Shown: piece after piece, positions 2,522 through 45,005 of the stretch
How positions within the stretch are numbered: the first letter of the stretch is position 1
How the letters are laid out: every line of letters starts with the position of its first letter
IMG/VR virus record: IMGVR_UViG_3300014205_000182
Location: 64,001 to 128,000 of that record
DNA length: 64,000 nucleotides
Reading direction: 5' to 3' (one strand)
From: a virus
Taxonomy: Duplodnaviria; Caudoviricetes
Translations under genes and position numbers: made by a program
The notes under the pieces: model-generated
What the model saw: the letters and a program-made list of their open reading frames with translations, nothing else
Database searches by the model: none
Told to the model about the DNA's origin: nothing

Positions 2522-2549
2522 AACCTAAGCACTGCTAGGGTGTTGTCAA
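2522..2549 (-). promoter_or_regulatory. sigma70-type promoter, leaderless geometry
   Basis: TTGACA-16nt-TAGGTT-6nt-ATG(2515). Confidence 0.7.
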
Positions 2550-4427: not shown

Positions 4428-4694
4428 TTAGTCCACCACCCAACCATCAGCCAGCATTTCCTCAAAAGAGGCATACTGCTTTGCCGGGATTCCCGCCAGC
4501 TGAGGTTCCAGCTTGCCAGTCTCCAGACGCATCACGTTGCCGAGGTAGACCCACGTCCTACCCTGGACAACAAACCCGATCTCGGGCATCCCAGAGCCCT
4601 TCGGGCGCTTCATGGGCATTACTGGACCCAGAGGCCAGGTCTCTGGCCTGCCAAGAATATCTAGGTCATGCGGGCGCTTAGGTGTCAGCATCAT
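4428..4694 (-). CDS. hypothetical protein (start revised to ATG 4694)
   Basis: TTGACA(4729-4724)-16nt-TACGAT-7nt-ATG. Confidence 0.65.
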   Translation of the reverse strand: MMLTPKRPHDLDILGRPETWPLGPVMPMKRPKGSGMPEIGFVVQGRTWVYLGNVMRLETGKLEPQLAGIPAKQYASFEEMLADGWVVD

Positions 4695-4740
4695 GCATCC
4701 TATCGTAATCACGTGCTACGCTTTGTCAAGTGGAGTGAAT

Positions 4741-12257: not shown

Positions 12258-12478
12258 TTCTTCTCCGCTCGATACTTCTCGACATCAGAATACCCCTGCG
12301 CCTTAGCCACTTCTTCATCCTTCGGAGCCGTGAGTACCTTGGCCCTGAATTCAGAACCATAAGCGTAAGGCAGAAGATTGCCCAGACGGTCATGAACATT
12401 CTCAGGCGTGATATCAAAACCGTCCTCGACCCAGGTCTCGGCGACTTCGATTTGAATGGTCCACTTGTAGAACTTCAT
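12254..12478 (-). CDS. hypothetical protein
   Basis: coupled ORF. Confidence 0.65.
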   Translation of the reverse strand: MKFYKWTIQIEVAETWVEDGFDITPENVHDRLGNLLPYAYGSEFRAKVLTAPKDEEVAKAQGYSDVEKYRAEKK

Positions 12479-16695: not shown

Positions 16696-16777
16696 AAGCT
16701 AAGCACCGGGCAGCGAAAGTCAAGTGTAACCTCGCGCAGCGAGAAGGCTTGACACGGGCACTGGGAGTGATTACTGT
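16696..16777. promoter_or_regulatory. divergent promoters, leaderless geometry
   Basis: minus TTGACT-16-TAGCTT-6-GTG(16689); plus TTGACA-17-TACTGT-7-ATG(16785). Confidence 0.75.
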
Positions 16778-32898: not shown

Positions 32899-33519
32899 AT
32901 GAGTGATGTACTAGTTAATGCGTTTCTTGGTGCCGAAAATGCGAAGGCTCTCAATAGCTTCTCGCCAAACTTTGCGAACGGTGAGCACACTGTGCTCCTG
33001 AAGCGATTCAATGTCAAGGAATCGGCCAAGGGTAAGGGTAAGATTGTTGAGGCGGATTTCCATATCCTAGCCTCTAACACCGAGCCTGTGGATGCCACCC
33101 GTGGCTGGCCGTGGTTCATTGGCGCTGCCGGTTGGCAGGGCACGTATGCTGAGGCTCGCCTCAAGGAGTTCTTGACCGCTGTCGCTGCTTGTATCGGTGA
33201 TACTAGCCCGATCTCTCAGATCGGTGCCATGCTCGCTGGCCCTGCACAGGCAGGTCGTGGCCTTGCCATCAAGGTTCATGTCTTTGACGGTAAGCCGAAG
33301 AAGGCACCGGCTACTGGTTTCTACCAGGAGATTCGCTGGATCCCGGTGACCCAGACGATGGAAGACATCAAGGCCGGTCGAGCCCTGCTCGATGGTGACG
33401 GTGCCGCTGCTCCTGCACCAGCGCCTGTCCAGGCTGCTCCAGTACAGCAGGTTGCTCCTACGCCCGCACCGGCACCCGCTGGAAACACGTCAAGCTTTCT
33501 CGCTGCTCTGAAGCGATAG
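32899..33519 (+). CDS. putative single-stranded DNA-binding protein
   Basis: position in replication cluster; beta-rich core with Pro/Ala tail. Confidence 0.5.
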   Translation: MSDVLVNAFLGAENAKALNSFSPNFANGEHTVLLKRFNVKESAKGKGKIVEADFHILASNTEPVDATRGWPWFIGAAGWQGTYAEARLKEFLTAVAACIGDTSPISQIGAMLAGPAQAGRGLAIKVHVFDGKPKKAPATGFYQEIRWIPVTQTMEDIKAGRALLDGDGAAAPAPAPVQAAPVQQVAPTPAPAPAGNTSSFLAALKR

Positions 33520-33540
33520 GAACAACCGACAGGTTGCCCC

Positions 33541-33569
33541 TTGACACCACCCACCAGGGTGGTTACTGT
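33541..33569 (+). promoter_or_regulatory. promoter of ncRNA operon 1
   Basis: TTGACA-17nt-TACTGT; predicted +1 near 33576. Confidence 0.8.
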
Positions 33570-33575
33570 ATCTGA

Positions 33576-33651
33576 GTCACCAAGCATGGTACCTGAGGAG
33601 ATCTCAGGGCACGACCAAGTTGTTCTTCGTTCGCATGAAACACTTGGTGAC
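33576..33651 (+). ncRNA. 76-nt structured RNA of unknown class
   Basis: 9-bp terminal stem GTCACCAAG/CTTGGTGAC beginning at predicted +1; inner CTGAG/CTCAG and TGGT/ACCA. Confidence 0.6.
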
Positions 33652-33656
33652 GATTA

Positions 33657-33732
33657 GGTGAGGTACGCTAAGTTAAAGCGGCGGGCACTATAAAGCCCGT
33701 GTTTGGTGGTTCATGTCCATCCCTCACCACCA
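33657..33732 (+). tRNA. tRNA-like RNA with 8-nt anticodon loop (ACTATAAA); identity unclear
   Basis: GGTGAGG/CCTCACC-A-CCA, CGCT/AGCG, CGGGC/GCCCG, GGTGG-TTCATGT-CCATC. Confidence 0.8.
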
Positions 33733-33816
33733 TCCGATAGTGATGCTAGCGGTTACTTCTTTGTCTAAGGACGGGTTCTTCGGGACCCGTAAATACCCGC
33801 TGCGATTTTCTTCGGA
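33733..33816 (+). ncRNA. Y-RNA-like element A
   Basis: TCCGA/TCGGA, TAGTGATG, AGCGG/CCGCT, TTACTTC; cUUCGg hairpin insert. Confidence 0.7.
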
Positions 33817-33823
33817 CTAATTT

Positions 33824-34051
33824 ATGAGCATCCCAAACTACTATAACGACGGGCATACTGCCAGCGCAGAGATGAAGCGCGACCTTGCACGTGTTCGCCT
33901 GGCTAAGCCAGAGCGCTACCTAACTCGCAAGGTGAAGGAACAGCGGCATTCAACCGAAGGTACGGTCGACGTTGTCGTCAACCGCGAGCCTGATTCGTTG
34001 GCGATGGGGCGTCGTGCGCGACACGAGTTCTGGACCAGGAGAGCTAAATGA
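33824..34051 (+). CDS. small basic hypothetical protein
   Basis: ORF. Confidence 0.6.
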   Translation: MSIPNYYNDGHTASAEMKRDLARVRLAKPERYLTRKVKEQRHSTEGTVDVVVNREPDSLAMGRRARHEFWTRRAK

Positions 34052-34497: not shown

Positions 34498-34760
34498 TGA
34501 AGAAGCTAATACTAGTAGCAGTACTGCTAAGCGGTTGTAAAAAGGTTGAACGTCCGAATACGCCACCGCCAATTGCGGACGGTAAGTGCCTGGCTGACAA
34601 GTATGTTGGCGCGACTGCAATGAAGCAGTCTTGCCTATACGTCGGCTACAACTGGTCGTGTGCGTATGACGCTGGTATCTATTCGTGTGATCGTGGGACT
34701 GAAGCAAGTGGAGAGCGCGTTACAACGCCCGTAACAGAAATTCTAGGAGCAACAAAGTGA
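34497..34760 (+). CDS. Cys-rich lipoprotein
   Basis: MKKLILVAVLLSGC. Confidence 0.7.
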   Translation: MKKLILVAVLLSGCKKVERPNTPPPIADGKCLADKYVGATAMKQSCLYVGYNWSCAYDAGIYSCDRGTEASGERVTTPVTEILGATK

Positions 34761-35743
34761 ATAAGACAGAAGTGACAATCGTAGCCGATCTCTCGGGGTC
34801 AATGCAGGGTAACAAGGAGTACAAGCTCCGTCAGATGGTTAGCCAGCTGATCCAGCAACTTGCGAACGAAGAGGCGAAGGGCAACCAGCTTTTCGAAGTT
34901 CGTTTGCTTCCATTCTCTACCAGCGCTCAGGTCTGGGGACCGTGGCCGGCTTCTGCCGCTGCTGGCCAGGTCGAGAGGCTGAACACGCGCTCTCCGTTCG
35001 GTCAGGGTACGGCGTTGATTGACGCTATCGGCAAGGCCCTCGAATCGTTCAACGGCAAGACGCCCGCGATCATCGCAATCTTCTCCGACGGCCAGGAGAT
35101 GCACAGCACGATCTACAGTGCTTCTCGCCTCAAGGCTGCGGTCGCCATCAAGGAAGCGACCGGGAACCTCACCCTGACGTTTGCCGGCCCTGACAGCGCA
35201 CGCCACATGCTGCGCAACATCGGCCTGCCTGAGGGCAACTTCCAGTCGTGGGATGGTTCTGAGCGTGCAATGCAGGAGACTGTCCAGCGCACGACGTCCA
35301 GCATGGACAACTACATCCAGGATCGTTCGAAGGGTGTTACCCGTTCGGCACGCTTCTACGCCGACCCAGGCGACGTTTCTGTCTCGGCAGTTCGCGGTAT
35401 GACCAAGAAGGTCACTCCTAGCGAAGTGCGCAAGGTAACGGCGAAGATGGACGGTCGTGCCATCTCGGACTTCTACGGCTCGAAGTTCGACCCGGGCAAC
35501 CACTACTACGAGCTTGTCAAGCCTGAGTACATCCAGGATGGCAAGGAGCTTGTGATCCTCGTCAAGTCGTCGAACGAGTATCGCCTGGGCTCTCGTGCGG
35601 TTCGCTCTCTGCTCGGTCTTCCGGAGACCGGTAAAGTTCGTGTTCACCCGGGACCACACAATGACAAGTACCAGATCTTCGTCCAGTCTAGCTCGATGAA
35701 CCGTAAGGTTGTCGAGGGCCAGACGATGATCACGGTGAAGTGA
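34757..35743 (+). CDS. von Willebrand factor A domain protein
   Basis: MIDAS DLSGS, TALIDAI, SDG.E. Confidence 0.85.
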   Translation: MNKTEVTIVADLSGSMQGNKEYKLRQMVSQLIQQLANEEAKGNQLFEVRLLPFSTSAQVWGPWPASAAAGQVERLNTRSPFGQGTALIDAIGKALESFNGKTPAIIAIFSDGQEMHSTIYSASRLKAAVAIKEATGNLTLTFAGPDSARHMLRNIGLPEGNFQSWDGSERAMQETVQRTTSSMDNYIQDRSKGVTRSARFYADPGDVSVSAVRGMTKKVTPSEVRKVTAKMDGRAISDFYGSKFDPGNHYYELVKPEYIQDGKELVILVKSSNEYRLGSRAVRSLLGLPETGKVRVHPGPHNDKYQIFVQSSSMNRKVVEGQTMITVK

Positions 35744-39981: not shown

Positions 39982-41207
39982 AGAAAATCAAGCGATGGAG
40001 CGCACAGTACGTTCCCAGCATGCGCGAATGCTTTCAAGCTCGCGACGGCAAGGGCTATTCGTCCGAGGACTTCAAGGCCGGTGAAACGTTTACGCACGCC
40101 CAGAGTTGTATCTGGTTGCTCGGATACTCTGACCTTGGTGTCGCTCTCCTGAACGACGTCGATCCTCACGGCGCCGTCGCTGCATCCGTTCTTGGTGTGA
40201 GCTACGAAGAATGGTTCAAGCGTCGTAAGGAACCTCTCTTTAAGGCGGCTCGTCAGGGCGCCAAGCCATTTACGTTTGGAAAGCCCACCGGCATGTCGTC
40301 GATCAAGCTTGTCTTGTCTAACCGCGCCCAGGGCCAGGATACGCCAGCCGAGGGAGGACCGTCGTGGATTGACGACGGAACGTATACCGGCAAGAAGATT
40401 CGCGGGTACAAGGGTACGAGATTCTGCATTCTGATGAACGGCTCACCTACCTGTGGTGACATCAAGGTAACCAGCTGGGGTCGTCGCGACAAGATCCCGC
40501 CGACTTGCAAGGCTTGTCTGGAATGTGCCGATCACCTCGGCAAGATTTGGCTCAAGCAGTGGCGTGAGAACCAGCCGTACTACGACATCAACGACGGGAT
40601 CGTCAACGAAGGTATGATGATCACTGAGGAAGCTCTGGAGCGTTGGCCGTGGCTCAAGAAGGTCTATCGCCCTGGCACGAAGACCGAACCTGGCCAGGTG
40701 ATGCAACACTGGTCCGGTCGTTTGCGTGGTGGTATGGACTTCACGACGACGTGCAACGGGTGGTTCCAAGTCCTTCTGGCCGAGATCACCAAGCTTGCAT
40801 ACCGCCTCGTCGCTCGTGAGTGCTACGACTCGACAATCAAGGTGCCAACACAGTTGTTCTACAACTCCAACCGTAGTCGTTACGCTGGTATGCAGAGCCC
40901 ACTGTTCCGGTCTACACCGGTTGCACCATTTCACGACGAGTTGTTTATGGAGCACCCGGCGTCGATGCTGGTTGACGGTGCAATGCGCACCAGTGAAGTA
41001 ATGCGTGATGTTTTTGCGTATGTTTGCCCGGACATGGCTGCGAAGGTTGGTGCCGACCCTACCATCATGGAGCGTTGGTACAAGAACGCCGAGCCGGTCT
41101 ACCGCGACGCGGCGGGTAACAAGTGCGAGCCCGACGCGCCGGGCGCACGGCTTTCGCTGTGGAAGCCGAAATTCGGACCGGGCGCTGAGGTTGTTGGAGT
41201 CCAGTGA
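39978..41207 (+). CDS. family A DNA polymerase, C-terminal fragment (motifs A, B, C)
   Basis: RECF..., SEDFKAGE, RQGAKPFTFG, FHDEL; own GGAG ribosome-binding site. Confidence 0.85.
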   Translation: MKKIKRWSAQYVPSMRECFQARDGKGYSSEDFKAGETFTHAQSCIWLLGYSDLGVALLNDVDPHGAVAASVLGVSYEEWFKRRKEPLFKAARQGAKPFTFGKPTGMSSIKLVLSNRAQGQDTPAEGGPSWIDDGTYTGKKIRGYKGTRFCILMNGSPTCGDIKVTSWGRRDKIPPTCKACLECADHLGKIWLKQWRENQPYYDINDGIVNEGMMITEEALERWPWLKKVYRPGTKTEPGQVMQHWSGRLRGGMDFTTTCNGWFQVLLAEITKLAYRLVARECYDSTIKVPTQLFYNSNRSRYAGMQSPLFRSTPVAPFHDELFMEHPASMLVDGAMRTSEVMRDVFAYVCPDMAAKVGADPTIMERWYKNAEPVYRDAAGNKCEPDAPGARLSLWKPKFGPGAEVVGVQ

Positions 41208-41229
41208 GACCTTCGCTGGTTATCTGGGC

Positions 41230-41841
41230 ATGACGTACGAGAGACCAGATAGCCGTCCTCTGCCAGAGTTTCAGCCTTGGCCTAAGATCCCGAGACTTAA
41301 CCGTGAGGTTACCGTTTCGGAGAAGATCGATGGAACAAACGCTGCGGTCTGGATTTCTGATGACGGTACTCAAATCGGTGCCCAGTCTCGGACGAAGTGG
41401 ATCACTCCCAAGGATGATAACTACGGTTTCGCTCGTTGGGTAGAGGAAAACCGCGACGAGCTTCTAAAGCTCGGACCTGGACATCACTTCGGTGAATGGT
41501 GGGGCTCTGGTATCAACCGCCGCTACGGTCTAACCGAGCGTAGGTTCTGGTTGTTCAACACGCATCGTTGGGGTAATCCGGATACACGTCCTGCGTGTGT
41601 GGGCTGCGTTCCAGTTCTTTGGAACGGTAACTACCAGGACATGGATCTTGCTGCAATCATGGCCAAGCTCACGAGTGAGGGTAGCGTGTCTGCGCCCGGG
41701 TTTATGAAGCCTGAGGGAGTTGTAATCTTCCATCACGCCGCAGATCAGTACTTCAAGGTGCTTGCGGAGGGTGACGAGTTACCTAAGGGGATTACTACGT
41801 TGAAGGAACGCGCAACGCTTGCAAAGCTGGAGGGAAAATGA
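41230..41841 (+). CDS. ATP-dependent RNA ligase (Rnl2-like)
   Basis: KIPRL, EKIDGTNA, GEW.G, EGVV. Confidence 0.8.
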   Translation: MTYERPDSRPLPEFQPWPKIPRLNREVTVSEKIDGTNAAVWISDDGTQIGAQSRTKWITPKDDNYGFARWVEENRDELLKLGPGHHFGEWWGSGINRRYGLTERRFWLFNTHRWGNPDTRPACVGCVPVLWNGNYQDMDLAAIMAKLTSEGSVSAPGFMKPEGVVIFHHAADQYFKVLAEGDELPKGITTLKERATLAKLEGK

Positions 41842-42104
41842 GCGATCGAAAGTTCAAGATTGGTGACGTCGTTGTTCTGCGCTCGGGCGGGCCGCAGATG
41901 ACCGTACTTCAATACGAAGTCGACAAATTTAACTACGTTGAGGACGACGAGGAGCCCGGTGTGGAGTGTTGTTGGTTTGCCGAGACAGGCAACGGGTACA
42001 CACCAGACGACATCCACAGTGATGAATTTGCTGAAGAGATTCTGACACTGCTTTACACCGCTGAAGCTTTTGACAACGCCAATAAACACAAGAGGGACCA
42101 GTGA
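41838..42104 (+). CDS. YodC/DUF2158-family protein
   Basis: FKIGDVV.LRSGGP.MTV...C.WF. Confidence 0.8.
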   Translation: MSDRKFKIGDVVVLRSGGPQMTVLQYEVDKFNYVEDDEEPGVECCWFAETGNGYTPDDIHSDEFAEEILTLLYTAEAFDNANKHKRDQ

Positions 42105-42502
42105 GCCTCTGGACACGTGGTATCACATCTCTCGGCTGGATCGGAATCGATCTTGACGGAACTCTAGCCACTTACGGCACTCGCCAGTGGCCAGACATCG
42201 GCGAACCTGTCCCAGCTATCCTAGCAATCGTGAAGGATTACCTAGCTCAAGGGCGCGAAGTTCGCATCATGACGGCACGCGTCGGTAACCTCTTCAAGAA
42301 CCACGTAACTCGTGCAGAGTACGACGACGGAGTTGAGCAGGAGCGTTTAGTTCAGGCTTGGTGCATGAAGCATCTCGGCAGAGAACTACCTGTAACTGCC
42401 GTGAAGGACTATGATATGGACCTTCTTCTGGACGACCGTGCAGTGACTATCGAGAAAAACACTGGTGTGATCTTGACAAAGGATTGGAGCGTGACTAAAT
42501 GA
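42101..42502 (+). CDS. HAD-family (PNKP-type) phosphatase
   Basis: DLDGTLA, TAR, K, DDRA. Confidence 0.8.
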   Translation: MSLWTRGITSLGWIGIDLDGTLATYGTRQWPDIGEPVPAILAIVKDYLAQGREVRIMTARVGNLFKNHVTRAEYDDGVEQERLVQAWCMKHLGRELPVTAVKDYDMDLLLDDRAVTIEKNTGVILTKDWSVTK

Positions 42503-42507
42503 GTGAT

Positions 42508-42741
42508 ATGAACAATTCACAGAAGGCGGTACAGGCTCTGGTTATTCAGCTGCACGAAGCCGGTGAGCCGATTGAAGACATTACCGACGCGTTCTCGTTT
42601 GCTGGTGCCATTGCAGCGGCAAGCCTCAAGCTGCCGCGACGCAACGTCGAAGGCCTTGTCGGTATTCTTGCATCGGTGATGAACAACGAGATCCCTTCGC
42701 ATTATCCGTCCCTTGACGATAAGCCCTTGACAGAGAACTAG
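42508..42741 (+). CDS. hypothetical protein (start 42499 or 42508)
   Basis: TTGACA(42473)-17-TAAATG-6-ATG(42508). Confidence 0.55.
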   Translation: MNNSQKAVQALVIQLHEAGEPIEDITDAFSFAGAIAAASLKLPRRNVEGLVGILASVMNNEIPSHYPSLDDKPLTEN

Positions 42742-42755
42742 TTCGTAGTTAGATT
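42727..42755 (+). promoter_or_regulatory. promoter of ncRNA operon 2 / Ro60
   Basis: TTGACA-17nt-TAGATT; predicted +1 near 42761-42762. Confidence 0.85.
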
Positions 42756-42760
42756 GTTTT

Positions 42761-42825
42761 TGAGACAGTGAAGCTGACGGATACTTCATCCATTAAAGAA
42801 ACCCCGTCAACGTTATATCTTCTCA
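42761..42825 (+). ncRNA. Y-RNA-like element B
   Basis: TGAGA/TCTCA, CAGTGAAG, TGACGG/CCGTCA, ATACTTC...AAAC. Confidence 0.7.
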
Positions 42826-42829
42826 TTTT

Positions 42830-42903
42830 GCCCCTGTAGCTTAATTCTAGAGCACCGGTCATTAGGACCGGGGATCGTGGTGAAAATCCATGCAGGGGCG
42901 CCA
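42830..42903 (+). tRNA. tRNA-like RNA with atypical loop CA-TTA-GG (UUA at anticodon position, A33)
   Basis: GCCCCTG/CAGGGGC-G-CCA, GCTT/GAGC, CCGGT/ACCGG, CGTGG-TGAAAAT-CCATG. Confidence 0.8.
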
Positions 42904-42904
42904 A

Positions 42905-42965
42905 GCGGTAGTGATAGACTCGGATACTTCATGGGGAAATAAACCCGAGTCAACAATATCTCCGC
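42905..42965 (+). ncRNA. Y-RNA-like element C
   Basis: GCGG/CCGC, TAGTGATA, ACTCGG/CCGAGT, ATACTTC...AAAC. Confidence 0.7.
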
Positions 42966-42975
42966 GTTAATTTAT

Positions 42976-43061
42976 GCACCTTATAGCTAGCAGCGGCGTG
43001 AATCACCAGCAGTACTGGTCGCGAAAGCGTAGTCACGACAAAATGAAGGTAGGGTGCGCCA
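42976..43061 (+). ncRNA. CCA-ending multibranch RNA
   Basis: GCACCTTA/TAGGGTGC-G-CCA; CGTGA/TCACG enclosing ACCAG/CTGGT and CGC-GAAA-GCG. Confidence 0.6.
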
Positions 43062-43064
43062 ATT

Positions 43065-43194
43065 TGCCGATAGTGATGAGAGCGGTTACTTCATTGATAA
43101 CGAACGAGGTCCGGGCTGCAAACCCCGGCGCACCTGCAAAGGTGTGTAGCTTAATAGTAGAGCGCGAAAACACCGCAATCGATTATCTTCGGCA
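43065..43194 (+). ncRNA. YrlA-like Y RNA (element D) with circularly permuted tRNA domain
   Basis: same stem motif as A-C; inside, in order: AGGT, T arm CCGGG/CCCGG, acceptor hairpin CGCACCT-GCAA-AGGTGTG, D arm TAGCTTAATAGTAGAGC. Confidence 0.85.
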
Positions 43195-43202
43195 CTTTTC
43201 AA

Positions 43203-43248
43203 GTGCGCCCCTGGACTGAGGGTCGGGGGACGGGGTCCAGGGGCGCAC
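43203..43248 (+). other. 14-bp perfect hairpin with G-rich loop
   Basis: GTGCGCCCCTGGAC/GTCCAGGGGCGCAC; four G-tracts. Confidence 0.7.
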
Positions 43249-43364
43249 ATCCTTTTATGTCCAGCAAGCATTACAACCCTGAAAAACGTGTATGGCGAGG
43301 CCGCTCCTACAAGAACGGCAAGCGTGTTTCTGAACTCAAGTACTCCAACAAAGGTAGTGACACA

Positions 43365-45005
43365 ATGGCAAACATTCTGAATCCAAAGTCTCCGAAGAAG
43401 ATCGACCAAGTCGAAACCCACAAGAACTGGATGGGTGGAACTTCGTTCGACATCAACGATCCAATCATGCGGCTGCGCATCGCAGCTAGCTCGTGCTTCT
43501 TTGGCGAGCCACAGTACTACTCGACGGACCCTGACGACAAGCGCAAGGCGCGTCAGGCATCTATGCCTGCTAACTTCGGGAAGCCGACGACACTGCCGGC
43601 AGCGCAGCTTACCAAGCTTCGTCAGACGCTGACGGCCATCGATCCTCAGGAGTGGCGGTCGATGACGCCGGCTCAGGCGATGGTCTCTGCTATCGACGCA
43701 GCCCTAGACCACGACCCTGAGGCAACGCTCGGCATTGCAGCAGCGCTTCGCCAGGCTGATCACATCCGTACGACGCCCCAGGTTATCCTGGTTCGTGCAG
43801 CACACCACCCCAAGGTTCGTGGTACTGGCATGCTCAAGAAGTATGCTCAGGAGATCATGGCACGTGCAGACGAGCCGGCCGTCGGTCTCGCATACCACAT
43901 CTTTGCCTACGGCAAGGAGAAGCCAATCCCGAACGCCCTGAAGAAGGTGTGGGCACAGCGCCTCGCACGTGCTTCGGAGTACGACCTCGCCAAGTATCGC
44001 CTGGCTGACCACTCGGTCAAGACGGTCGACGTCGTCAACCTCGTTCACGCCAAGTCTCCAGCAATCGGAAAGCTCATGAAGGGTGAACTTACGACCGAGG
44101 GCGAGACGTGGGAGTCCATCATCTCGCAAGGCGGATCTACCAAGGAAAACTGGGAGAAGGCCATCGACAAGATGGGCCACATGGCCCTACTGCGAAACCT
44201 GCGTAACTTCAACGACAAGGGTGTTAACCCGTCGCTGTACACTGGCAAGCTCGTTGGTGGCGCAGCGACCGGTAAGCAGCTTCCGTTCCGCTATTACTCG
44301 GCGTACAAGGCTGTCGCCGGTTCTTCGGCACCGGTGATGGACGCTATCGAGCAGTGTCTGGAGATTTCGCTGGGTAACCTGCCGAAGTTCCCGGGCCGTA
44401 CGATGGCGCTTGCCGACAACTCGGGCTCGGCTCGTGGTGCAACCACGTCCACGATGGGAACGATGCAGGTTTCGACGATTGCTAACTTGACGGCTATCGT
44501 GGCCGGCAAGGTGTCGGACGACGGCTACATCGGTGTCTTCGGTGACACGTTGAACGTCGTGCCGGTGCGCAAGAGGTCGTCGGTGTTCGATCAGTTGAAG
44601 GCTGCCGACGAAGCTGGTGCAGCAGTCGGCGGTTCTACCGAGAACGGTATCTGGCTGTTCTGGGAGAAGGCTATCCGCGAGAAGGAGCATTGGGACAACG
44701 TGTTCGTGATGTCTGATATGCAGGCAGGTCACGGCGGGCTCTATGGTACGCGTGCGTCGATGGCGTCGTACTCTCGTGAGTACGGTTGGCCGGCAGCTAA
44801 CTCGCCGCACATCGACGTCGCCAAGCTCGTCAACACGTATCGCGCCAAGGTCAACCCGAAGGTCAACGTGTTTCTAATCCAGGTCGCCGGTTACCAGGAC
44901 ACCCTGATGCCGGAGTTCTACAACCGTACGTATATCCTCGGCGGATGGGGTGAAGGCGTTCTTCGCTTTGCTGCCGCGATGGCTAATATCGGAGAGGTTA
45001 AGTGA
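43365..45005 (+). CDS. Ro60/Rsr (TROVE + vWA) RNA-binding protein (alternative start 43257)
   Basis: FFGEPQYY, R.DE, MALLRNLRN, LPFRYYSAY, DNSGS MIDAS, SDMQ. Confidence 0.9.
   Translation: MANILNPKSPKKIDQVETHKNWMGGTSFDINDPIMRLRIAASSCFFGEPQYYSTDPDDKRKARQASMPANFGKPTTLPAAQLTKLRQTLTAIDPQEWRSMTPAQAMVSAIDAALDHDPEATLGIAAALRQADHIRTTPQVILVRAAHHPKVRGTGMLKKYAQEIMARADEPAVGLAYHIFAYGKEKPIPNALKKVWAQRLARASEYDLAKYRLADHSVKTVDVVNLVHAKSPAIGKLMKGELTTEGETWESIISQGGSTKENWEKAIDKMGHMALLRNLRNFNDKGVNPSLYTGKLVGGAATGKQLPFRYYSAYKAVAGSSAPVMDAIEQCLEISLGNLPKFPGRTMALADNSGSARGATTSTMGTMQVSTIANLTAIVAGKVSDDGYIGVFGDTLNVVPVRKRSSVFDQLKAADEAGAAVGGSTENGIWLFWEKAIREKEHWDNVFVMSDMQAGHGGLYGTRASMASYSREYGWPAANSPHIDVAKLVNTYRAKVNPKVNVFLIQVAGYQDTLMPEFYNRTYILGGWGEGVLRFAAAMANIGEVK

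Follow-up and report, generated by a model that had tools for sequence, protein, structure and literature searches.

Genomic setting of the locus

The window analyzed here is a 64,000-nt stretch (bases 64001–128000) of the 143,724-bp IMG/VR virus record IMGVR_UViG_3300014205_000182, and coordinates refer to this stretch unless genome positions are specified. Two groups of small structured RNAs lie on its plus strand. Operon 1 consists of a promoter, a 76-nt RNA, a tRNA-like RNA (tl1) and a Y-RNA-like RNA (element A); operon 2 carries three Y-like RNAs (elements B, C and D) interspersed with two CCA-ended units (tl2 and tl3). The tRNA genes of the phage, ∼30 in number, are found at genome positions 4.3–17.4 kb.

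A Ro60/Rsr gene with a TROVE domain (Pfam TROVE, 5e-13) is located at positions 43257–45005 (plus strand), downstream of element A at a distance of 9.4 kb. Its product matches the solved Thermus phage phiLo Ro60 (structures 9L5Y/9KOP) with E = 1.4e-14, and its closest relatives in cultured phages are gp540 of Bacillus phage G (38% identity) and a Desulfovibrio phage protein (36%). The gene is adjoined by an RNA ligase (41005–41841) and a PNKP-like phosphatase (42101–42502) and resides in an RNA-repair neighbourhood. The start codon is probably ATG 43257, which lies 3′ of a hairpin with a 14-bp stem; a GTG at 43203 was rejected as an artefact because it overlaps structured RNA. The hairpin itself (43203–43248) is followed by AUCCUUUU in the interval between element D and the Ro60 start (43203–43259) and could be an attenuator or a processing barrier.

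Operon 1 is preceded by a gene at 32899–33519 that the initial annotation had called SSB-like, a label that finds no support from Pfam or PHROG, where the protein has no match. Searches of viral contigs and of five related phage records likewise found no relative of this protein, so the exact locus has no comparator. When the locus was compared by blastn with 50,697 phage records, no match was obtained, and an Rfam scan of the window at gathering thresholds returned nothing, both tRNA-like RNAs being missed by its filters. On the other side of element A, the first downstream open reading frame (33824–34051, plus strand, 75 aa) lacks a Shine–Dalgarno sequence and overlaps the next ORF through an ATGA. 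A stand-alone vWA/MIDAS protein of 328 aa (34757–35743; PHROG 26613, function not annotated) is encoded 1 kb 3′ of element A. We considered this protein as a Ro60 paralog and rejected it: BLASTP gives E = 5, there is no PDB relative by sequence, and the likeness to the vWA part of the phage Ro60 is limited to the DxSGS motif.

A shared promoter class and predicted transcription starts

The operon 1 promoter (33541–33569, plus strand) is composed of TTGACA at 33541–33546, a 17-nt spacer containing a small inverted repeat (33547–33562) and TACTGT at 33564–33569. It was overlooked by a generic scanner, the −10 element fitting at three of six positions. The operon 2 promoter (42727–42755, plus strand) has the same organization, with TTGACA, 17 nt and TAGATT. 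Both belong to a class, TTGACA-N16/17-TANNNT, that is present in nine copies in the window versus 0.76 expected from shuffles and in 24 copies genome-wide, one of which precedes the tRNA array at genome 14934 on the minus strand. Other copies are found, for example, at window positions 2522–2549(−), 4702–4729(−) and 16749–16777(+).

By hand tally, an ATG or GTG stands 6–8 nt 3′ of the −10 element in ∼14–16 of the 24 genome copies, and many of the phage mRNAs seem to be leaderless, which hints at the kind of host. We used the position of these start codons to calibrate the +1 of operon 1, which is predicted at G33576, the first base of a 9-bp stem. For operon 2, the same calibration places the predicted +1 at about G42762, where element B begins.

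The leader RNA and the extent of the precursor

The RNA that begins at the predicted +1 is 76 nt long (33576–33651, plus strand). It is closed by the 9-bp stem (GUCACCAAG/CUUGGUGAC), contains an inner 6-bp hairpin and is separated from the tRNA-like RNA by a 5-nt spacer. The CCA of the latter (33730–33732) abuts element A, which starts at 33733, with a spacer of 0 nt. The arrangement of promoter, stem-closed RNA and abutting CCA given in the initial annotation is thus reproduced in full. When folded, the predicted transcript 33576–33826 forms three separate domains (z = −3.2). Neither the 76-nt RNA nor tl3 has a paralog or homolog in any sequence fetched; the 76-nt RNA is probably a 5′ leader or cap structure of the precursor.

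No terminator was found between element A and ATG 33824, and no other promoter of the TTGACA-N16/17-TANNNT class is present on the plus strand between operon 1 and 42727. The transcript therefore probably runs into the genes from 33824; operon 1 would then form the leader of a long mRNA, from which the ncRNAs are probably processed, as in tRNA–mRNA operons. The string UAAUUUAUG occurs 3′ of both elements A and C (33817–33826 and 42966–42976); after C it forms the spacer before tl3, and after A it holds the ATG of the first ORF. This repeat may be a shared cleavage signal or may have arisen by chance.

tl1 is a non-decoding tRNA mimic

tl1 (33657–33732, plus strand) comprises a cloverleaf (33657–33729), with a 7-bp acceptor stem, D, anticodon and T arms and a discriminator A, followed by an encoded CCA (33730–33732). 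It matches the Rfam RF00005 tRNA model at 42.9 bits (E = 1e-7; gathering score 29 bits), within the 39–62-bit range of the other tRNAs of this phage, and its minimum free energy fold is the cloverleaf (z = −3.9). Its loops are not those of a decoding tRNA. The anticodon loop has 8 nt (ACUAUAAA) and departs from the decoder pattern of a 7-nt loop with U33 and a purine at position 37. By inspection, the D-loop (AAGUUAA) lacks the GG of the G18–G19 elbow, and the T-loop (UUCAUGU) has U at position 58, where the T54–A58 elbow pair requires A.

A single paralog of tl1 exists, at genome 8348–8421(−), with 89% identity; ARAGORN calls neither of the two as a tRNA. Pairing is kept at all seven stem differences. 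These include compensatory changes in the acceptor stem (U3–A70 to G–C), the anticodon stem (G–C to C–G, together with a C–G to U–G wobble) and the T stem (G–U to C–G). The anticodon loop of the paralog has 6 nt rather than 8, and both RNAs terminate in ACCA. With stem pairing kept while the loops differ, the name tRNA mimic is justified, and the comparison indicates that the pair is under selection for tRNA shape and not for decoding. The paralog precedes an ordinary tRNA-Glu, with no Y-like RNA. A naive scan for a 7-bp acceptor stem followed by NCCA proved too noisy, giving ∼70 matches per strand with tl1, tl2 and tl3 among them.

Element A belongs to a covarying RNA family

Element A (33733–33816, plus strand, 84 nt) is built from an outer stem (UCCGA/UCGGA), a UAGUGAU loop, an inner stem ending in CGG and the segment UUACUUC in its 5′ half, followed by a single cargo hairpin with a UUCG loop, an A-rich linker, CCG and a U-rich segment in its 3′ half. 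The order is common to elements A–D: outer stem, YAGUGAW, inner stem ending in CGG, WUACUUC, variable cargo, A-rich linker and CCG. We built a covariance model, R1, from seven copies of this handle in the phage and its nearest relative, in which the CCG is followed by the U-rich segment and the closing strand of the outer stem, with covariation in both stems; element A has all of these parts and scores 51.5 bits (E about 4e-11).

A genome-wide motif search located a fifth copy, element E, inside the tRNA array and outside the window (genome ∼13007–12935, minus strand; L125:8936–9008:−; 64.5 bits). With R1, exactly five matches were obtained in the 143.7-kb genome, with no other up to E = 5. 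Upstream of element E is a degenerate cloverleaf that lacks CCA; its downstream neighbour is tRNA-like, ends in CCA and has UUA in the anticodon position. ARAGORN and Rfam recognize neither unit. A further pattern match, in the related phage L006, falls within coding sequence and was dismissed as a chance occurrence.

Further loci were fetched with a seed pattern fixing AGUGA and CGGUUACUUC, which added tandem arrays in 11 large phage contigs and brought the family to 31 members in 13 phage contigs. The invariance of AGUGA and CGGUUACUUC in this set is partly ascertainment; the stems were left free. In these stems, 91% of cells are paired versus 63% in shuffles, double changes number 134 versus 43 in shuffles, and the covariation score is 0.684, compared with 0.176 in shuffles and 0.09–0.17 when the partners are slid. 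R1 searches around the Ro60 genes of Desulfovibrio phage 7757 and Thermus phage phiLo gave no convincing match, the best in phiLo reaching 17 bits.

The family distribution also bears on a simpler reading of operon 1, in which its structured part would act mostly in cis, as a 5′ leader controlling the stability or translation of the genes from 33824, and would not supply trans-acting RNAs. The missing terminator, the lack of another same-class promoter before 42727 and the absence of a Shine–Dalgarno sequence from the downstream ORF would all suit such a role. The family to which element A belongs, however, is present at five sites in this genome and in 12 other phages, in arrays beside tRNAs and Ro60 genes and in varied downstream contexts. 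A leader specific to one gene would not show this distribution, and we regard the leader reading as highly improbable.

Operon 2 and the link to Ro60

Element B (42762–42825, plus strand; R1 67 bits) starts at the predicted +1 of operon 2 and is followed by tl2 (42830–42903, plus strand), a tRNA mimic that ARAGORN calls tRNA-Stop(tta) and the Rfam tRNA model scores at 47.5 bits. tl2 has UUA at the anticodon position, A at position 33, an anticodon loop that can close to 5 nt, an odd T-loop (UGAAAAU) and an encoded CCA. Element C (42904–42966, plus strand; R1 62.6 bits) comes next, and tl3 (42976–43061, plus strand) is an 86-nt multibranch RNA with a 7-bp acceptor-like stem and GCCA; its fold has no cloverleaf or T arm and it has no Rfam match. 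Element D (43065–43194, plus strand; R1 30.9 bits) carries as cargo a YrlA-type tRNA-like module with a T arm, a hairpin and a D arm. The initial annotation had CCA ends preceding C and D here as well, and this holds: CCA 42901–42903 is followed after 1 nt by the stem of C, and CCA 43059–43061 after 3–4 nt by that of D. An ORF of 81 aa at 42974–43219, which overlaps tl3 and element D, is almost certainly no gene.

Operon 2 ends next to the Ro60 gene, and the association extends to the family. TROVE genes are present in eight of the nine searchable R1-positive records, the sole exception being a fragment estimated to be 26% complete, and in none of five R1-negative large viral contigs from the same fetch that served as controls. 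In Bacillus phage G, R1-like RNAs lie in an unannotated 1-kb gap upstream of the TROVE gene gp540. At least three such RNAs are present in this gap, and the same region contains an annotated tRNA-other(tta) and a tmRNA (L126 3957–5015 and 9534–9970). A tmRNA (95 bits) is also encoded by L117, a 225-kb phage.

The description of element A as a Y-like RNA is therefore upheld by its membership in a covarying, Ro60-associated family. Judged from its sequence, element A is a short, YrlB-like member of that family and most likely a ligand or scaffold of the phage Ro60. We hold the identification of the parts of the locus with high confidence.

Relation to YrlA

Ro60 genes with nearby Y-like RNAs or YrlA have been described in mycobacteriophages (Chen et al. 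2014, PMC4201824; Rfam RF02553), and Ro60 with Yrl1 and Yrl2 in Thermus phage phiLo (PMC12135203); this pairing in phages is already known. Like the Ro60 (Rsr)–Y RNA systems, which in Salmonella and Mycobacterium smegmatis include YrlA and YrlB, the present one has stem-closed small RNAs encoded with a TROVE gene, several per genome. It differs from known Ro60–Y RNA loci in the 9.4 kb that separate element A from the Ro60 gene. Bacterial Ro60–Y RNAs are processed from a common precursor, and here a common precursor is predicted. [quoted passage not shown]

Two comparisons place the R1 family relative to YrlA. First, element D resembles YrlA in its nested T-arm/hairpin/D-arm module, and it aligns to positions 30–81 of the Rfam YrlA model (RF02553) at 14.9 bits (E = 4.7), below the gathering score of 69; for element A, no YrlA match is found in 33300–34000 up to E = 10. 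In the R1 arrays of relatives, scores with the YrlA model are sub-threshold but significant, at 37–47 bits with E down to 3e-7. Secondly, the GNCGAAN0-1G motif by which Chen et al. (2014) define bacterial Y RNAs, located on the 5′ strand of the Rsr-binding stem, is replaced here by YAGUGAW and WUACUUC: element A reads UCCGAUAG (two mismatches) and element D GCCGAUAG (one mismatch), and B, C and E do not fit. Unlike in YrlA, the tRNA-shaped unit is separate in operon 1, a non-permuted cloverleaf placed in series and provided with an encoded CCA. Taken together, these comparisons point to a relationship between the R1 family and YrlA in architecture.

Y-like RNAs occupy tRNA slots

CCA is encoded by seven of the 31 ARAGORN-called tRNAs of this phage (genome 4391–17393, L125), and tRNAs with and without an encoded CCA seem to alternate pairwise along the array. 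After a CCA-ended tRNA, the next unit mostly begins 1–2 nt further on. The CCA-to-Y spacers of 0 nt for A, 1 nt for C and 3–4 nt for D are similar to this tRNA–tRNA rule. Two of the ARAGORN calls have ‘anticodons’ of four and two bases (4469–4544 and 12326–12399, respectively).

In the relatives, nearly all tRNAs encode CCA, and Y-like RNAs are found inside the tRNA arrays with the same CCA + 0–4 nt spacers that are seen at tRNA–tRNA junctions. L117 contains the series tRNA-Gly(GCC)-CCA-UCU-Y-UUUC-tRNA-Gly(UCC) and, at a second site, tRNA-CCA-AUUU-Y-Y-YrlA-like; L046 contains tRNA-Met-CCA-AAAU-Y-YrlA-like. The Y arrays of L039, L034, L022 and L010 lie within or at the edge of tRNA arrays. Other junctions have no tRNA: many Y–Y junctions consist of AU-rich linkers of 7–17 nt, and the closest relative (Rsr 59% identical) has its three Y-like RNAs on either side of the Rsr ORF, with no tRNA-like unit among them. 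Two ARAGORN calls in the relatives, ‘tRNA-His’ at L039:6186–6255 and ‘tRNA-Asn(att)’ at L117:317–387, begin with a Y-like handle (GGUGUAG...CAGUUACUUC, or CAGUGAGG...GGAUACUUC) and look like YrlA-type RNAs misread as tRNAs.

The absence of any spacer at 33733 suggests a second way of reading operon 1, namely that tl1 and element A are one bipartite RNA of ∼160 nt in which the tRNA module stands in series instead of being nested and the CCA blocks RNase Z. The ACCA would then be a 4-nt single-stranded hinge between two helices, and a module supplied in series would suit A, B and C, which are without the nested one of D and YrlA. In the relatives, however, Y is preceded by a standard decoding tRNA, which could not work unless released; the tl1 paralog is followed by a tRNA instead of a handle; and element B starts at the +1 with no tRNA unit upstream. 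A single bipartite molecule is in our judgement very unlikely.

Processing of the precursor

We favor separate RNAs cut from a common transcript. The anatomy of the locus, the R1 family, its association with Ro60 and its position among tRNAs are observed; in the pathway that we build on them, the transcription start, every cleavage, Ro60 binding and the nuclease at the CCA junction are inferred. A host sigma-70-type promoter, of the class that would also drive the tRNA array and the Ro60 locus, would fire at G33576. The transcript would contain, in order, the 76-nt stem-loop, the non-decoding tRNA-shaped RNA with its CCA, element A and then probably the downstream genes, and the 5′-terminal stem-loop would protect the precursor. 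A cut by RNase P at G33657 would remove the leader and set the 5′ end of the mimic, and a 3′-end nuclease acting at the CCA, or no more than a few nucleotides from it, would free element A so that its 5′ end coincides with the base of the closing stem. The freed RNA would bind the phage Ro60, which is encoded beside the RNA ligase and PNKP-like phosphatase. We lean slightly towards this processing model.

RNase P could account for the cut at 33656/33657 and for the 3′ ends of B, C and E, and not for CCA|33733; the 5′ end of A, where both a T arm and a 3′ CCA are missing, is not an expected RNase P site. RNase E sites typically have a U-rich context. The A and C junctions (CCA|UCC and CCA-A|GCG, respectively) have no such context and do not look like RNase E sites. 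RNase Z is inhibited in many bacteria by an encoded CCA, and both E. coli RNase BN and the Thermotoga RNase Z cleave after CCA.

The initial annotation had proposed that CCA-ending units act as processing punctuation that releases the Y-like RNAs with defined 5′ ends. The placement on which this rests is borne out, since Y-like RNAs fill tRNA-type slots with CCA + 0–4 nt spacers both here and in the relatives. As they are routinely found in such slots, the Y-like RNAs are probably excised by the tRNA-processing enzymes of the cell and released in the course of tRNA maturation. The strongest support comes from L117, where a Y-like RNA lies between two ordinary, working tRNA-Gly and would thus be freed by tRNA maturation too. 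Several points narrow the punctuation role. The tl1 paralog stands before tRNA-Glu, which shows that the mimic is not reserved for Y RNAs; the Y-like RNAs of the closest relative lack tRNA units, so such units are not required for release; and this arrangement, together with the tRNA-free Y–Y linkers, implies that other nucleases can release Y-like RNAs. These observations argue that CCA units are neither necessary for nor dedicated to Y-RNA release.

A stronger version of the punctuation idea would make tl1 and its paralog, tl2 and tl3 dedicated, portable processing or end-defining cassettes for the Ro60 Y-like RNAs or, equivalently, would make mimic plus handle a split YrlA. Such cassettes would bring in host RNase P and a 3′ nuclease that respects CCA, perhaps along with a CCA-adding enzyme, and Y-like scaffold RNAs would be carved for a phage Ro60 RNA-repair or RNA-decay particle in a viral form of ‘tRNA punctuation’. 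We consider this version doubtful.

The opposite possibility is that the CCA-ended mimics have a job of their own, so that their contact with Y-like RNAs reflects dense packing and punctuation is a by-product. The mimics might act as decoys, or as nuclease-resistant substitutes for tRNAs, against host defences that target tRNAs; they might be substrates or cofactors of the phage RNA-repair module; or they might be ligands of CCA-binding factors. The tl1 paralog fits this possibility, since it stands before an ordinary tRNA-Glu yet has its cloverleaf kept by compensatory changes. So do the array, where CCA-ended units mostly have the next unit 1–2 nt on, whatever its kind, the normal decoding tRNAs upstream of Y in L117 and L046, and the RNA ligase and PNKP-like phosphatase that adjoin the Ro60 locus. 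The sequence, however, names no defence target or partner, and tl3, which has only an acceptor-like stem and GCCA and no cloverleaf, is a better fit to a minimal processing or end-protection signal. We rate an independent function for the mimics as a credible, if unlikely, alternative. The best explanation of the whole, which we favor with moderate confidence, is a Ro60-linked ncRNA operon whose Y-like RNAs would be freed by tRNA-maturation enzymes.

Comparison with tRNA-linked processing and implications

Processing of RNAs linked to tRNAs or tRNA-shaped elements has several precedents, among them mitochondrial tRNA punctuation, the E. coli tRNA-tufB operon, MALAT1–mascRNA, the tRNA–miRNA units of gammaherpesvirus-68 and plant tRNA–snoRNA genes. 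The arrangement proposed here is like tRNA punctuation in that a tRNA-shaped element would recruit RNase P and a 3′-end nuclease and thereby free a non-tRNA neighbour; it is unlike those examples in that the encoded CCA of the tRNA unit directly abuts the next RNA. In E. coli, RNase P is able to separate polycistronic tRNAs on its own (PMC2190699). In the literature searched, we found no description of tRNA-punctuated processing of Y RNAs or of such processing in phage Ro60 systems.

Non-tRNA RNAs embedded in the tRNA arrays of mobile elements also have precedents. GOLLD, cited in PMC9569102, is a structured RNA housed in phage or mycobacterial tRNA arrays. The Ro60-like protein gp130 of Bas63 is encoded next to a tRNA stretch, and the authors of that study speculate that some annotated ‘tRNAs’ by the phage Ro60-like gene are Y RNAs (bioRxiv 10.1101/2024.10.10.617714). 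These two reports give no RNA family, structure or junction grammar, whereas here a family with covariation and mapped slots is defined. The R1 handle family, its systematic occupation of tRNA slots and the serial arrangement of CCA-ended tRNA mimics and Y RNAs were likewise absent from the literature searched.

The covarying family defined here (YAGUGAW ... WUACUUC) has no Rfam model, and it extends to phages in culture, Bacillus phage G among them, which are open to experiment. If Y-like RNAs generally sit in tRNA operons and are released by tRNA enzymes, this would explain why phage Ro60 genes are found beside tRNA arrays. Some of the ‘odd tRNAs’ in phage annotations would then be Y RNAs or processing cassettes, and Y RNAs would have a simple, testable route of biogenesis.
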